Shown here in pieces: positions 1,668-20,233 of a DNA stretch of 35,711 nt. Within the stretch, counting starts at the first letter, position 1, and each line of letters opens with the position of its first letter. The stretch covers positions 1 to 35,711 of the forward strand of contig JAUVXW010000041.1 in the NCBI GenBank assembly GCA_030603385.1, given 5' to 3'. The translations under genes were made by a program, and so were the position numbers. Origin of the DNA: Promethearchaeota archaeon (GTDB taxonomy: Archaea; Asgardarchaeota; Lokiarchaeia; Sigyniarchaeales; SOKP01). The notes beneath the pieces are model-generated. The model was not told the origin of the DNA and made no database searches. It was given only the letters and a program-made list of their open reading frames with translations.

Positions 1668-3728
1668 ATGAAGATTTTATTAATTCATTCGGACGGCGTA
1701 GAAGTTATTAAACAAAAACCAGCTACAAGCAAACCTCAAAAATTTCCCGGAAAGAAAATTAAAATGGATGGTTTGGTCCTTGTAGCGTATGTTTCTGTAG
1801 AAGATCAAGATACTTATGATACTGATATAATTGCAAAGCAAGGAGCTGATGTTATTGAGGAAGCAATTCTTCTAATAACAGGTTTTCCTGAAAAAATCCG
1901 TGAGAAAAATGAGGAAATTAGAAAACATAATAAAAAAATCGAATCTGGAGAAATCAAGGGAAAGCCTAGAAATTTAGTCGAATTAATTAAAGAAAGGGAT
2001 ATGTATCGAGTTGATAAAGTACTGGTTTATCCATGGGCTCACCTATCAAAATTCCTGAGTAATGATAATAACGCAATGGAAGTGTGCCCTAAAATTGCTA
2101 AACTATTGGAAGAAAAAGGAATCGAGGCAAGTTTTTCTCCATTTGGATGGTATAAATCTTTTAAAATTAACTGTATAGGTCATGAAGTAGCTGAAATGTA
2201 TCGAGATATCAAACTAGCCATAAAACCCGAAGAAGAGGTCAAAAACTCCGTTTTTAAAGTAATAACACCTCAAGGGAAGGAGTTAAATATAGAATTGGAT
2301 GAAGAAAAAGAAATTTTGCCCTTAGAAGATATTAAAGAAGAAGATTTTTATTTATTTTTAAAATCCGAATTAGGAGCAAGAAGAGTAGATAAAGATATTG
2401 AACCAGCACATCTTAAAGTTTTACGAGAATTTGAACTTCTGGATTGGAAAGAAAACACTGAAAAAAGTTTTCCTACATGGTATACAAAGGGCGTTATTAT
2501 GAAAAATCTAATAAAAAATTTTATCGAAGATAGATTAATAGACTATGGGGCAATATTAATCGATACTCCGGTTATGTATACAGTAAAAAATAAGAAGTTA
2601 ACAGCCCAAACTGCTCGATTTCCCGCTAGAAGTTATTGGGTTGAATCAGGGAAAGATAGATTTCTATTGAGATATGCAAGTGATTTTCTTCTGTTTGATT
2701 TATTCTCTCAGATGAATTTAAAACCACAATATTTTCCGTTAAGAGCATACGAGTATGAACAATATGCTTTTAGACGCGAACAGGAAGGAGAATTATCAGG
2801 ATTAAGAAGACTACGAGCATTTATAATGCCAGATATGCATACAATGTGTAAAGATTTAGAATCTTCCATTGATGAGTTTAAAAAGCAGTATGAATTAATT
2901 AAGAATCTTGAAATGGATTTAGGTATAAAAACTTATGTTACATTCAGAGTTACAAAAGAATTTTATGCGGAAAATAAGGATTGGATAATTAATTTAATTA
3001 AATCAGAAAAACATCCTGCGCTATTAGAACTATGGGAAGATAGATATTATTATTACATCTTAAAATTTGAAAGGAATGTGCTTTCTGCTCATGGTAAAAG
3101 TGCTACATTAGCAACCAATCAAATAGATGTAGAGAGCTCTTTAGAATATATGAAAGATACTGACGGTGTGGAAAGACAGAAATATAATATTTCTTTCACA
3201 GATACTGATGGTCAAATAAAACATCCGATAATTCTTCATAATTCTCCAACTGGAGCTATAGAGAGAGTTTTATGGGGTTTAATTGAATCAGCTATCCGAA
3301 ATAAGGATAAGTTAGTTCCAGGATTTAGAGCTTGGTTATCCCCCATTCAAGTACGGATTATAACCGTTTCTGATGATCAAAACGAATATGCTGAAAAGGT
3401 TCTTGATATTATCAATGGAGAGGAATTTAGAGCAGATTTCGATGATCGAGAAGAAACGGTTGGTAAAAAAATAAGACAATCTGAAATTGATTGGATTCCC
3501 TATACAATTATAATTGGCAAAAAAGAACAGCAAAATCAAACCATATCAATAAGAAAAAGATTGATAGGTGAACCTTTTGGCCCAAAAAAACAAACATCTA
3601 ACCAAATTAATGATGTAAAACTAGATAAATTATTAGAAATGCTTGAAGATGATACAAGAAATTTTCCAAAATATAAATTGCCAAAACCTTTTAGAAAATT
3701 CTCAACTAAAGTCTACTTTAGAAAATGA
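1668..3728 (+). CDS. thrS: Threonyl-tRNA synthetase, archaeal type with N-terminal editing domain
   Basis: MKILLIHSD, VYPWAHLS and PFGWYKSF (editing domain); FRREQEGELSGLRRLRAFIMPDMH (motif 2); ILHNSPTGAIER (motif 3); WLSPIQVR...DDREETVGKKIR (anticodon domain). Confidence 0.97.
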   Translation: MKILLIHSDGVEVIKQKPATSKPQKFPGKKIKMDGLVLVAYVSVEDQDTYDTDIIAKQGADVIEEAILLITGFPEKIREKNEEIRKHNKKIESGEIKGKPRNLVELIKERDMYRVDKVLVYPWAHLSKFLSNDNNAMEVCPKIAKLLEEKGIEASFSPFGWYKSFKINCIGHEVAEMYRDIKLAIKPEEEVKNSVFKVITPQGKELNIELDEEKEILPLEDIKEEDFYLFLKSELGARRVDKDIEPAHLKVLREFELLDWKENTEKSFPTWYTKGVIMKNLIKNFIEDRLIDYGAILIDTPVMYTVKNKKLTAQTARFPARSYWVESGKDRFLLRYASDFLLFDLFSQMNLKPQYFPLRAYEYEQYAFRREQEGELSGLRRLRAFIMPDMHTMCKDLESSIDEFKKQYELIKNLEMDLGIKTYVTFRVTKEFYAENKDWIINLIKSEKHPALLELWEDRYYYYILKFERNVLSAHGKSATLATNQIDVESSLEYMKDTDGVERQKYNISFTDTDGQIKHPIILHNSPTGAIERVLWGLIESAIRNKDKLVPGFRAWLSPIQVRIITVSDDQNEYAEKVLDIINGEEFRADFDDREETVGKKIRQSEIDWIPYTIIIGKKEQQNQTISIRKRLIGEPFGPKKQTSNQINDVKLDKLLEMLEDDTRNFPKYKLPKPFRKFSTKVYFRK

Positions 3729-17016: not shown

Positions 17017-17355
17017 ATGGTTTATGAGACTACTATTATAATCAGAAGTAGAAGTGATAAAGAAAAATCGATTAAGGACGCAATATTTGCATTTTCTGGT
17101 GGTAAAAAATCATTACTAATTAAGGGGGAGGGTGAAGAAATAAGTACAGCAGTTGAAGTTGCTGAAATATTAAAAAATCGTATGTACCCCCGATTAGAAA
17201 TTGGAAATGTTTCTTTAGGAAGTCGTCCCTTTTTTGACAACAGGAACCGTAGATACGATAACAGATACAATAACAGAAATAATAAATTTAATGGAAATAA
17301 AAAAGATATTATATCGAAAATTGAAATTACGCTTCAAACGAAATCTATTGCATAA
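17017..17355 (+). CDS. Divergent Alba-family nucleic-acid-binding protein
   Basis: LLIKGEGEEISTAVEVAEILKNR...ISKIEITL matches the Alba pattern IKARG.AIS.AVDVAE...VS.IEI.L; SD GAGGT upstream. Confidence 0.82.
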   Translation: MVYETTIIIRSRSDKEKSIKDAIFAFSGGKKSLLIKGEGEEISTAVEVAEILKNRMYPRLEIGNVSLGSRPFFDNRNRRYDNRYNNRNNKFNGNKKDIISKIEITLQTKSIA

Positions 17356-18368: not shown

Positions 18369-18761
18369 CTAAGATTTTTTAGATATTTTCGTATTCAATC
18401 CATTTCTTGCTTCTAATAATAATTCAAGATTTGAATTCACTTTACCTACTTTATTCACTTTATTTGGCATTTGCATATTTTCTATAAGAATTACTAACTC
18501 ATCAGTCTTGGGATTATATATAATATCTCCTTTCTCTACTTCCTTTACTGATTTAGGATTTGAACCTTTAAAAATTCCTAACCCGGGGAGTGTCCAGTAA
18601 TTCTTCGAACCAAAACTAAATCTACCTCTCATATTAATTGGTAGTTTTTCAATTATCGCATCTGCAGAAAATGGAGCAATATATCTTATAATATGTCCTT
18701 CTATTGTGCCAATTCCGAAAAACTCAATTTTTATTGGTACTATACCTGTATCACTATTCAT
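18369..18761 (-). CDS. Cyclophilin-like fold protein (DUF369/UPF0288-like)
   Basis: AP.S...I...LP, VEKGDIIYNP...LVI and VNKVGKV pattern. Confidence 0.7.
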   Translation of the reverse strand: MNSDTGIVPIKIEFFGIGTIEGHIIRYIAPFSADAIIEKLPINMRGRFSFGSKNYWTLPGLGIFKGSNPKSVKEVEKGDIIYNPKTDELVILIENMQMPNKVNKVGKVNSNLELLLEARNGLNTKISKKS

Positions 18762-18860
18762 ACTTTATAAATAATGTAATTACAGATATTTATATTATTT
18801 TAAATTGATACATAAATTTTTTCGTCAATGAAATCTAAAAAATTATTATTATATTTAATA

Positions 18861-18874
18861 ACAAGATTTAAATA
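18861..18874 (+). promoter_or_regulatory. Archaeal BRE/TATA promoter for the putative ncRNA
   Basis: TTTAAATA at 18867-18874 preceded by purine-rich ACAAGA; the terminal helix starts about 20-23 nt downstream, the expected TSS distance. No + strand ORF follows. Confidence 0.55.
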
Positions 18875-18892
18875 CTTCTTTTATCATATATA

Positions 18893-19393
18893 GAGTTGAA
18901 GAGGATAATAGGTTGCATTGGAATTAGATACATAATTACGGTTCAAACACCGAATTTATTATTTGCTAAAAAAATAAACTGATTCCGACATTTTTTTGTT
19001 TTTGATACGAGATAACAATCAATATCAATAGATTAATTCCCATATATTCCTGTAGTGCTTAATACGAAAATACAGAAAAGTTGATTTTCACATAACTTCT
19101 GATAACCATTTTTGAAAATTAGCATATTGGAGTAAAATCATAAGTTCTTCATTTAATCCATGGTTGAATATGTACATGCTTTGGCAATGAGACATTATTA
19201 CTCTGAGGATTGAGTTTAGCTTAATTTGTATTAAATTCTTATTCACAAGACATTTAAACAATGAGAAATTTGGTTTTAAATGAGAAATTTTTATAAATAG
19301 GAGCTTTGATTACATAATTGCTTCATAGGATAATGATTCTATACATTCCTTTGATTCAAAGAATAATCGGAGCACCTATTGTCCTTTTCACTT
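18893..19393 (+). ncRNA. Putative large (~500 nt) structured non-coding RNA of unknown class
   Basis: 18897-18916 pairs with 19372-19390 (19 bp, 2 G-U, 1 bulge). Nested helices: 18918-27/18979-88, 19050-54/19071-75, 19080-90/19113-23, 19142-49/19299-306 and 19251-58/19275-82. Upstream TATA, downstream T-tract and no ORF. Confidence 0.68.
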
Positions 19394-20233
19394 TTGTTCT
19401 AAGCTCAATATATCTGATTTTGTATCGATATCAAGATATATGTATTGGGGATCAATGGGAACTGCATAAAGTATATTTTTATGCTTAATTATATGGTTAA
19501 GTATTTCTCTAATTGTGGTTGCTGAAATTTTCCTTTCGGTCTCTATAATTTTATTAATAATTCTATAGTTAAAAACAAATAAGGGTACTATTTGATTAAT
19601 CTCTTCATTGTTATCAATTTCACTTAGTTTTCTTTGCTGTACTTCTTTAACCACTATTTCTTTTGATCCTAATTCTTCAATTTTTGCAATTGAAATTAAT
19701 TTTTTAGAATTTAATTTTGTTTTTAGATTAATTGCTTTCGTTTTCTGGTAAAAAACCATCGATTTATTATCAGGAATAGTGAGGCTGTTAGAGATAATTT
19801 GAAAAATTTCTTTCAATAAAATTGATTCATAGTAAGTATCACCAGGAAAAACCAAATAGAATTTACCTTTTTTAATAATAGCTTTTCTGTTTGTTATTGA
19901 AAGAAAAGAATATAATGGTCCCATTTTATAATTATTACCAGAGTTAACTAGTAATATTTTGTTTTGAAGAGATTCATCTTTTTTCTTGAGGGAAGAGATG
20001 TATTTTTCTATCTCCTCTCTTAGATGCCCAGTTATAATAACAATTGATGTTATGTTTAGTTTAATTAAATTGAAAATTAAATGAGATAGAATTGGCTTAT
20101 CATATATTTTAATTAATGGTTTTGGTATGTTATGAATAAAATCACTTATCCGCGTCCCTTCACCAGCACATAATATTATCGATATTAAATTTTCTATTAG
20201 TTTATTCTTTTGTAGTGACAATTTTATTTCCAT
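19388..20233 (-). CDS. NTP-transferase family (sugar/choline-phosphate nucleotidyltransferase-like)
   Basis: IILCAGEGTRI...PKPL, FPGD and C-terminal DIDT..D. Exact start uncertain because it overlaps map. Confidence 0.85.
   Translation of the reverse strand: MEIKLSLQKNKLIENLISIILCAGEGTRISDFIHNIPKPLIKIYDKPILSHLIFNLIKLNITSIVIITGHLREEIEKYISSLKKKDESLQNKILLVNSGNNYKMGPLYSFLSITNRKAIIKKGKFYLVFPGDTYYESILLKEIFQIISNSLTIPDNKSMVFYQKTKAINLKTKLNSKKLISIAKIEELGSKEIVVKEVQQRKLSEIDNNEEINQIVPLFVFNYRIINKIIETERKISATTIREILNHIIKHKNILYAVPIDPQYIYLDIDTKSDILSLEQK

Follow-up and report, generated by a model that had tools for sequence, protein, structure and literature searches.

The gap between the cyclophilin-like and NTP_transferase genes

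The window analyzed herein is a stretch of 35,711 nucleotides from a Promethearchaeota archaeon (contig JAUVXW010000041.1), the genome assembly of which (G000) is 94% complete. Within it, a cyclophilin-like gene (positions 18369-18761) and an NTP_transferase gene (19388-20233, stop codon at 19388-19390) border a gap on the left and right, respectively. The initial annotation had placed a structured plus-strand RNA in this gap and described it as antisense to both neighbors; its coordinates and sequences for the gap are as stated, and both flanking genes do lie on the minus strand, the NTP_transferase gene being convergent with the RNA. We show herein, by comparison of sequences, that the gap represents a predicted stand-alone plus-strand gene whose product, a structured non-coding RNA of ~500 nt, makes up a family new to description, and it is very probable that the locus is a real functional structured RNA. 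Each check of the sequence that the initial annotation had suggested turned out in favor of its interpretation.

The gap had been called ORF-free, and no open reading frame of at least 60 amino acids occurs in it. Shorter frames of 30-57 amino acids can be found mechanically, and these are what speaks for the view that the gap contains one or more small proteins, a decayed pseudogene or a mobile element. This view is scarcely credible, as indels of all lengths separate the short conserved blocks of the relatives, and the element is syntenic, with neither terminal repeats nor target-site duplications found. The possibility of a miniature transposable element (MITE), raised in the initial annotation, was rejected because there is a single copy, in the same neighborhood in the relatives.

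The predicted gene appears to have its own promoter and terminator. A block at 18855-18874 on the plus strand (TTAATAACAAGATTTAAATA) consists of a BRE-like purine-rich stretch directly upstream of a TATA box (TTTAAATA, 18867-18874), which lies ~24 nucleotides upstream of the first paired base. This block is directed into the gap, is nearly invariant in 21 genomes of the same genus and is retained in other genera; by the archaeal promoter consensus, it probably acts as a promoter. A CATATA element at 18885-18890, between the TATA box and the start site, falls in conserved alignment columns and may represent a proximal promoter element. At the other end, a T-rich tract (TTTT-CAC-TTTT-G-TT, 19385-19398) comes after the last paired strand. 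The terminal T-run has a median length of nine in the relatives, and measures at least five in 55 of 58. Oligo-T tracts terminate archaeal RNA polymerase, so that this tract is a likely terminator. Thus, the upstream box and the 3' T-tract of the initial annotation were both recovered; a scan for bacterial promoters and terminators gave nothing relevant. From the distance to the TATA box, the helix joining the two ends, and the T-runs, the transcript is predicted to extend from 18893 to 19398, with a start near 18893-18898 and an end within the terminal tract. Homologues are 385-538 nucleotides long in four genera and about 365-640 nucleotides long in the others.

Helices of the predicted RNA and their covariation

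A constant feature of the RNA is P1, a helix of 15 base pairs that joins the first and last nucleotides and is followed by the T-rich stop. Its 5' strand (GAAGAGGAUAAUAGG, 18898-18912) holds the family-wide core GGAYAAUAG, and its 3' strand (CCUAUUGUCCUUUUC, 19375-19389), which overlaps the stop codon of NTP_transferase, holds the core CUAUURUCC. In alignment A3, 97.9% of the P1 cells are paired. For example, pair 23-585 occurs as UA (30), GC (13), AU (5), UG (2) and GU (1) and is never broken, while pair 17-591 occurs as CG (48), UG (9) and UA (1). The pairing of 18897-18916 with 19372-19390, seen in the initial annotation, closes both the minimum-energy and the centroid structures of RNAfold, and its core is the helix that comparison of the relatives supports. 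A pairing of an internal AAUAGG with the 3' CCUAUU in place of the 5' end was rejected, because its fifth pair is non-standard in 24 of 53 sequences, whereas all sequences have that 3' base paired with the 5' end.

P1 is followed by the motif GCAUUGG (18915-18921), then by a U/A-rich stretch and GAUAC. GCAUUGG is invariant or nearly so across eight genera. Its potential partner in genera g12, g23 and g16 is a stretch located 2-5 nucleotides upstream of the P1 3' strand; in the genus of the window, that stretch pairs with GCUUUGAUU instead. From genus to genus, the inner domains vary strongly in both sequence and length, while P1, GCAUUGG and the promoter stay fixed.

Hairpin P3 (18934-18956; AAUU-a-CGGU, loop UCAAAC, ACCG-AAUU) is part of the minimum-energy fold. 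Each of its eight pairs has both partners changed in some part of the family, as seen, for example, in CGGU/ACCG, ACAG/CUGU and UACAGU/ACUGUA; only 58% of its cells are paired in a MAFFT alignment, because lineages shift register. P5 is formed by AUUCC (19046-19050) and GUGCU (19055-19059), separated by an internal loop UGUA, which pair with AGCAU (19121-19125) and GGAGU (19129-19133), separated by a loop AUU; the latter strands correspond to the conserved block AGCACUUUGGAGCA of the relatives. In alignment A3, the outer helix of P5 is 77.5% paired with three of five pairs changed on both sides, and the inner helix is 76.3% paired with all five so changed. The outermost pair is A-U in the window genome versus G-C in most relatives.

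Two further boxes lie downstream. A first UGAGACA box (19188-19194) is conserved in genera g1 and g21. The second GAGACA box (19246-19252) reads CAAGACA here and CGAGACA in most relatives, and its G, A and C do not vary among 58 sequences. The box serves as 3' strand in a helix with an upstream CUCUUGU (columns 390-396/428-434, 87.2% paired); in the window genome, the 5' strand has diverged.

The 3' domain (19303-19373) is a single long irregular hairpin with basal, middle and apical parts. Its basal helix, GCUUUGAUU/AAUCGGAGC, contains tandem U-G pairs, and its apex, above the middle helix, consists of UCA/UGA plus a GGA/UCC hairpin. Genomes folded singly share this one architecture, with a middle helix that differs in sequence from lineage to lineage. 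In structural alignment A6, 87.2% of the cells are paired and six of seven pairs in the middle helix have both partners changed; the score for covariation reaches 0.129, compared with 0.085 for shuffled alignments (0/500 as high) and at most 0.086 with partners slid.

Over the full length, 83.9% of the cells are paired versus ~42% with partners slid. The covariation score of 0.140 compares with 0.097 after shuffling (0/500 as high) and at most 0.075 after sliding, in an alignment fitted partly by eye or by model; as the homologues are mutually related, significance is overstated by the shuffle controls. Several helices are only weakly retained in this alignment, P3 and P5 (~77% of cells paired) among them. 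Compensatory changes, judged from the aligned sequences, support P1, the 5' hairpin, the bipartite central helix and the long 3' hairpin. The nested fold of the initial annotation survives in part. The closing helix and the CGGT...ACCG hairpin are borne out by the relatives, and several of the inner helices, as drawn by eye, are wrong or not conserved: TTGGAATTAG/CTGATTCCGA (UUGGAAUUAG/CUGAUUCCGA) can form in only ~10 of 58 homologues; AAGTTCTT/AGGAGCTT, ATAGGA/TTCTAT and CTTTG/CAAAG compete with the conserved fold of the 3' domain; and the remaining ones sit in lineage-variable sequence.

Folding energies and model scores both bear on the strand. In the window genome, the plus strand folds at -112.1 kcal/mol, compared with -87.6 +/- 6.2 for 100 dinucleotide shuffles (z = -3.95, 0/100 as good), and the minus strand has a z of -1.90. 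The corresponding values are -5.41 and -3.18 in a g22 homologue, and -2.31 and -2.47 in g12, where the strands are not separated. A model of the 3' domain scores 108 bits on the plus strand versus 38 on the minus strand, on which the conserved tandem U-G pairs would become A-C mismatches. The plus strand, proposed earlier on the basis of G-U asymmetry, is thus favored by the G-U pairs, the model scores and the folding z-scores.

These observations also bear on the view that no functional RNA exists and that the conserved blocks are DNA signals of the flanking genes, such as divergent promoters, factor sites or a bidirectional terminator. The left block indeed borders on the cyclophilin-like gene's promoter and the right block on the 3' end of NTP_transferase; moreover, the G+C content of the RNA gene (24-33%) is not above that of the surrounding genome, and many structured RNAs have a G+C content higher than their genome background. 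However, compensatory changes ~480 nucleotides apart and within the 3' hairpin are unexpected for DNA sites, the G-U asymmetry favors one strand, conserved blocks also occur midway through the gap, well away from both genes, and the RNA gene is kept where one neighboring gene differs (g15 and g16). We regard DNA signals alone as a most improbable explanation.

Distribution and relation to known RNA classes

The window genome carries one copy of the RNA gene, and the syntenic gap of its relatives contains a homologue with compensatory base changes. The 3'-domain model matched once per genome, on the plus strand, in 48 of 53 genomes of g1, 36 of 42 of g22, five of ten of g21 and the single genome of g19 (1/1), and a broader model, R3, gave the same distribution. 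Homologues that have diverged but share the promoter, the 5' motif, a complementary 3' end and the T-run were found in g12, g15, g16, g21 and g23. Altogether, at least eight genera, all from one Promethearchaeota family (f1), carry one syntenic copy per genome. An exact-pattern scan of 185,579 species genomes returned 57 matches, 56 of which are titled Asgard archaea or "uncultured archaeon", the other being titled Nanopelagicaceae. No homologue was found in other families of the class Promethearchaeia, where the 3'-domain models matched 0 of 19 genomes in f2-f4. The 5' pattern had only two matches outside f1, and at both of these sites the promoter and complementary 3' end are missing. The cyclophilin-like gene of f2 directly abuts a PRPP synthetase gene, leaving no gap. 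To judge from these searches, the RNA is found only in one family of Asgard (Promethearchaeia) archaea.

The RNA does not match a known family. A scan of the whole window against Rfam 15, which took in OLE, ROOL, GOLLD, HEARO, group I/II introns, Y RNA and U snRNAs, gave no match at the gathering score and chance-level matches only at E values up to 10. At the latter threshold, 16 homologue loci from eight genera (17 homologues scanned) showed no match inside the RNA and shared no weak match. Several classes were considered individually. Archaeal RNase P RNA (RF00373), whose model comprises a P1-P4 core and conserved regions, has no match in the window, and that of this genome lies elsewhere (G000:C26:124759-125079, 129 bits). 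Archaeal SRP RNA (RF01857), the model of which covers helix 8, helix 6 and the Alu domain, also has no match in the window; in 18 of 24 relatives of the same genus, the best SRP match (56-84 bits) is on a contig other than that of this RNA (in G003, C23 versus C2). An SRP RNA was not detected in G000 itself. The absence of RNase P and SRP signatures, noted from the outset, agrees with RNase P RNA lying elsewhere in the genome and SRP RNA elsewhere in relatives. ARAGORN found no tRNA or tmRNA in 18600-19600, in line with the earlier remark that the RNA has no tRNA-like end.

Among guide RNAs, a box C/D sRNA is ~50-70 nucleotides long and is characterized by box C (RUGAUGA) towards its 5' end and box D (CUGA) towards its 3' end, which form a K-turn next to a terminal stem. 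Rfam matches to this class were below threshold (17-33 bits versus cut-offs of 45-60) and their sites are not conserved in the relatives. A box H/ACA sRNA is a hairpin whose upper stem contains a K-turn or K-loop; it also has a pseudouridylation pocket, and an ACA three nucleotides from its 3' end. The RNA does present a stem followed by GAGACA (columns 390-396/428-437), with an internal ACA and no pocket. Above this stem, ~60% of the sequences allow U-U, G-A and A-G pairs to be drawn, and several entire subgroups have lost the G-A motif. This loss speaks against reading UUGA...UGAUAC-ACGAGACA as a K-turn or an H/ACA-like element.

A strongly diverged representative of some known class (RNase P/MRP, SRP, C/D or H/ACA guide, U3- or snRNA-like RNA, Y RNA, telomerase-type RNA) could account for the weak C/D snoRNA model matches in the window (E 0.15-9), for UGAUAC...GAGACA, which many homologues allow to be read as tandem G-A pairs beside a stem with ACA after it, and for the Y RNA-like layout of a conserved terminal stem, a variable interior and a U-tail. 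Nonetheless, such a relationship is highly unlikely. Beyond the Rfam results, relatives that carry this RNA have their SRP RNA elsewhere, and neither the C/D-like nor the G-A motif is maintained from one subgroup to the next, UGAUAC giving way to UGGUAC or UGCUAC. A Y RNA in particular was rejected, since the 94%-complete genome has no TROVE/Ro60 match and the RNA, at ~500 nucleotides, is about five times as long as a Y RNA.

In general appearance, the RNA resembles the large orphan bacterial RNAs of the OLE, ROOL, GOLLD and raiA class, which are ~0.5 kb long, have many helices and short conserved blocks between variable regions, are lineage-restricted, usually occur once per genome and were found by comparative genomics before their function. 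It differs from them in being archaeal and AT-rich, in not matching their Rfam models and in having no conserved partner gene identified. It shares with Y RNA an end-joining stem of conserved sequence, a variable interior and a 3' oligo-U tail; the differences are those of length, Ro60 and Rfam match given above. Archaeal RNase P and SRP RNAs are likewise stable, have a promoter to themselves and pair their two ends in a helix (the stability of the present RNA being presumed), but the locus scores with neither model. A full-text literature search found no description of this RNA, and no large structured RNA of this kind was found described for Asgard archaea. To our knowledge, archaea as a whole have yielded very few large structured RNAs whose function is unknown.

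The internal U-tract and a possible role of the RNA

An internal U-tract (U7-G-U5, 18991-19003), preceded by GACA, lies ~103 nucleotides from the 5' end. A U-run of at least five occurs here in 54 of 58 homologues (median U7, maximum U12), and complementary arms flank the tract in several lineages. It may represent a binding site for Sm-like proteins, a partial terminator, or both. Since an internal run of U7-U12 is as long as the terminal terminator, RNA polymerase would be expected to stop there, and the full-length RNA may be a minor product. Alternatively, the locus might mainly give a small RNA of ~100 nucleotides (18893 to ~19000) ending at this tract, with the downstream 400 nucleotides made by read-through only, or acting separately, and the end-to-end pairing working within rare read-through molecules or between molecules. 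The near-constancy of the run, its median length of U7 versus U9 for the terminal one and the established termination of archaeal RNA polymerase at oligo-T are all compatible with this idea, and the most conserved 5' features (the P1 5' strand, GCAUUGG and P3) all lie upstream of the tract. On the contrary, the P1 3' strand, directly before the terminal T-run, covaries with the 5' strand, and no second conserved promoter was seen between the tract and the downstream domains. Helices downstream of the tract covary too, which indicates that the downstream part is under selection as RNA. A mainly short product is thus unlikely.

The explanation that we prefer as a whole, and consider reasonably probable, is a stand-alone gene for a stable RNA that acts in trans as the scaffold of a ribonucleoprotein; that the RNA works as a protein-bound scaffold in the manner outlined below is about evenly balanced. 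P1 encloses the 5' hairpin, the internal U-tract, the bipartite central helix, the GAGACA-box helix and the long 3' hairpin; in this scheme, the blunt terminal helix with its 3' U-overhang would protect the ends. P1 and GCAUUGG would be the probable docking site of a sequence-specific protein, or a target-recognition element, because the sequence of P1, and not its pairing alone, is conserved. An antisense action of GCAUUGG on rRNA was also considered; the 16S rRNA is unassembled in G000, G006 and G023, and in G023 a gap of 100 N stands in its place.

The A-U(5-12)-R tract, single-stranded between helices ~100 nucleotides from the 5' end, would probably bind an Sm-like (LSm) ring in this scheme, and may also cause partial termination, giving a short isoform. 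That Sm-like proteins bind the tract at all appears possible but doubtful. Three LSM-domain proteins are encoded in the window genome; LSM genes are present in many archaea, and hence do not discriminate. A possible parallel is with eukaryotic Sm-class snRNAs and U3-type snoRNAs, which likewise have a single-stranded A-U(n)-R tract between helices, a small invariant single-stranded motif by the terminal stem and a fast-evolving size. In contrast to these, the present RNA contains no family-wide box C/D, box A or ACAGAGA-type motifs and has no Rfam match, and its U-tract is of low complexity and may simply be a terminator.

RNAs this large with a conserved architecture have historically proved to be ribozymes or the cores of ribonucleoprotein machines, and Asgard archaea are the closest prokaryotic relatives of eukaryotes. 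Further-reaching proposals, namely that the RNA is the scaffold of an Asgard-specific ribonucleoprotein comprising an Sm-like ring and a sequence-specific binder of P1, or else a new large ribozyme, are quite improbable. If the Sm-ring reading were true, the particle would be a prokaryotic counterpart of eukaryotic Sm-class snRNPs or snoRNPs and might even be related to them, and either an Sm-type particle or a new catalytic RNA would bear on the origin of eukaryotic RNA machinery. Otherwise, the RNA would still provide a new family for Rfam and explain a conserved "empty" gap in these genomes. With predicted ends, a promoter, a strand, a covariation-backed fold and a range of at least eight genera, it can be sought directly and used as bait.

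A predicted RNA gene between two minus-strand genes

We show herein, by comparison of related sequences, that a predicted RNA with its own putative promoter, ends locked together in a helix and covarying internal domains is encoded between two minus-strand genes of the window, a cyclophilin-like gene (18369-18761) and an NTP_transferase gene (19388-20233). The intervening gap (18762-19387; 626 nt), called ORF-free in the initial annotation, lacks ORFs of at least 60 aa, and the sequences and coordinates quoted in that annotation proved correct on the window. The G+C content of the RNA locus (~25%) is the same as that of its surroundings. When 21 such gaps were aligned, a putative promoter block, TTAATAAcAAGATTTAAATA (18855-18874, plus strand), was nearly invariant; its TATA box precedes the first paired base by ~24 nt, the interior of the RNA has several short conserved blocks, and a T-run follows the last paired base.

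A second conserved block (18762-18815; TTTATAAATAATGTAATT...ATATTTATATTATTTTAA) immediately precedes the ATG of the cyclophilin-like gene. It probably represents the promoter of this gene, which would then have a very short leader, arranged back to back with the putative promoter of the RNA. An Alba-domain gene (Alba is a chromatin and RNA-binding protein) lies at 17017-17355, 1.5 kb from the RNA gene, past a VTT/DedA membrane protein gene.

Pairing of the ends and of the internal domains

Folded with RNAfold, the plus strand of 18893-19395 gave a molecule closed by the end-to-end helix proposed in the initial annotation. Its energy was -112.1 kcal/mol versus -87.6 +/- 6.2 kcal/mol for dinucleotide shuffles (z -3.95), and none of 100 shuffles folded as well; the reverse strand had a z of -1.90. 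The annotation had also assigned the RNA to the plus strand. This assignment is favored by the putative promoter, which is directed into the gap, by G-U pairs in the terminal helix (P1) and conserved tandem U-G pairs that become A-C mismatches on the other strand, by the score of a 3'-domain covariance model (108 bits on the plus versus 38 on the minus strand), and by folding both here and in a homologue from genus g22 (z -5.41 versus -3.18). However, folding in genus g12 does not favor the plus strand (z -2.31 versus -2.47).

Pairs of the hand-drawn structure were counted on an alignment of 58 full-length homologues. Standard pairs filled 83.9% of cells, compared with ~42% when partners were slid by 1-3 columns, and the covariation score of the whole structure was 0.140, versus 0.097 for shuffled (0/500 as high) and at most 0.075 for slid alignments; such counts, made on related sequences and partly fitted alignments, give strong support rather than a formal probability. 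P1 (18898-18912 with 19375-19389, plus strand) was 97.9% paired. One of its pairs occurs as U-A (30), G-C (13), A-U (5), U-G (2) and G-U (1) and is never broken, another changes from C-G to U-G or U-A, and in genera g12 and g19 the core GGACAAUAG/CUAUUGUCC is replaced by GGAUAAUAG/CUAUUAUCC. The 3' strand could instead pair with an internal AAUAGG, but the fifth pair of this rival is lost in 24 of 53 sequences, which argues that the end-to-end helix is the conserved pairing.

The 3' domain, a long hairpin (19303-19373, plus strand), takes the same fold in every genome taken alone. It consists of a basal helix, GCUUUGAUU/AAUCGGAGC, with tandem U-G pairs, a middle helix, and an apical hairpin of UCA/UGA and GGA/UCC. 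Depending on the lineage, the middle helix reads AUAAUUG/CAAUUAU, CAGAUUUG/CAAAUCUG, UCAGGAGA/UUCUUCUGA, CGAAGAAU/GAUUCUUUG or GUAGGAU/AUCCUUU, with two-sided changes in six of its seven pairs in a structure-guided alignment; the domain scored 0.129 for covariation versus 0.085 when shuffled (0/500 as high). Two-sided changes, with more broken cells, were also seen in the previously noted 5' hairpin P3 (CGGU/ACCG in the window; ACAG/CUGU and UACAGU/ACUGUA elsewhere) and in the bipartite central helix P5 (GUUCC...GUGCU with AGCAC...GGAGC). A U-run of at least 5, ~103 nt from the 5' end, is present in 54 of the 58 homologues (median 7, maximum 12); it often has A before it and G or A after it, with helices on both sides. 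The central 200 nt vary too much to be folded with confidence; within this variable part, the 12-nt sequence AATGAGAAATTT is repeated exactly, in direct orientation, at 19260-19271 and 19279-19290, 19 nt apart.

Distribution and comparison with known RNAs

The RNA is single-copy in its own genome and syntenic in relatives, without repeat character, and is thus not a MITE. BLAST found a syntenic match in 22 of 24 same-genus genomes, with 75-83% identity at both ends and a far more diverged middle. A covariance model built from the 3'-terminal 100 nt gave exactly one plus-strand match per genome in 48/53 genomes of the window's genus (g1), 36/42 of g22, 5/10 of g21 and 1/1 of g19; nine further genera of the family gave no match. 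A broader model gave the same result within the family and no match in 19 genomes of three other families of the order. The missing matches in other genera partly reflect a limit of the 3' model. In both g12 and g23, the NTP_transferase and cyclophilin-like genes are still separated by an ORF-free gap of ~700 nt. The RNA predicted there shares the promoter and the 5' end (GGAYAAUAG...GCAUUGG) and has a complementary 3' end, CUAUURUCC, with a T-run, but its 3' domain differs.

A 5'-motif pattern recovered true homologues in g12 (5/5) and matched in g15 (3/6), g16 (3/4), g23 (4/7) and g21 (6/10); the reversed pattern, as a control, matched six times in 161 genomes. Promoter, complementary 3' end and T-run accompany all three g16 matches and one g15 match (G049). 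The other two g15 matches lack all three, and two matches outside the family lack the promoter and 3' complement; these look like chance. Homologues range from ~365 to ~640 nt. Family f2 has no such gap: its cyclophilin-like gene directly adjoins a PRPP synthetase gene. A scan with an exact 3' pattern, covering 185,579 prokaryotic species at one genome each, matched 57 records. All but one are titled as Asgard archaea or 'uncultured archaeon'; most of the titles give Promethearchaeota or Promethearchaeia, and some give Hermod-, Hod-, Thor- or Odinarchaeota. Taken together, the model, pattern and gap surveys suggest that the RNA is restricted to a single family, where it occurs in at least eight genera.

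NCBI phylum labels vary within this one GTDB family (Hermod-, Hod-, Thor-, Odinarchaeota). The exceptional record, DATKTW010000163.1, titled 'Candidatus Nanopelagicaceae bacterium', looks mislabelled or contaminated, since it carries the Asgard RNA. The RNA gene is kept in g15 and g16 with changed neighbors: g16 (G054) lacks the NTP_transferase gene and has an M24 peptidase gene immediately next to the RNA, and in g15 (G049) the upstream neighbor is a 278-aa ORF without a Pfam match.

Scans of 17 homologues, drawn from eight genera and admitting E values up to 10, gave no match above chance to any Rfam 15 family, and no published description of the RNA was found. The locus is not RNase P RNA (encoded on contig 26 of this genome; 129 bits), SRP RNA (located elsewhere in relatives), tRNA or tmRNA; the initial annotation had seen no RNase P or SRP helix-8 signature and no tRNA-like end. 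Some sequences allow C/D-like and H/ACA-like motifs to be drawn, which are not kept across subgroups. No Ro60/TROVE gene was found in the window's genome, which is 94% complete.

The Rfam archaeal SRP RNA model had no match in this whole genome and only sub-threshold matches (56-84 bits; cut-off 96.5) in the 24 same-genus relatives, so SRP RNAs of this Asgard family are missed by standard annotation. These MAGs lack assembled rRNA; in the 'complete' MAG chromosome CP070805.1, a 100-N gap (positions 3100-3199 of 868500-880500) stands at the expected 16S rRNA site, followed by only the last ~120 nt of the 16S gene (3311-3433) and a tRNA.

A possible ribonucleoprotein scaffold

Across the eight genera, the putative promoter and terminator, the P1 sequence and a GCAUUGG a few nt downstream of the P1 5' strand are fixed, and the rest drifts. 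That P1 is kept in sequence as well as in pairing points to protein recognition rather than to a role in architecture alone. In g12, g16 and g23, GCAUUGG could base-pair with nucleotides immediately upstream of the P1 3' strand; in g1 and g22, GCUUUGAUU of the 3' hairpin occupies these nucleotides, and GCAUUGG would then be unpaired. The internal U-run may be a site for Sm-like proteins, of which three LSM genes are present in the window's genome, a partial terminator giving a short isoform, or both. P1 conservation, GCAUUGG and the U-run together lead us to read the RNA as a candidate stable ribonucleoprotein scaffold.
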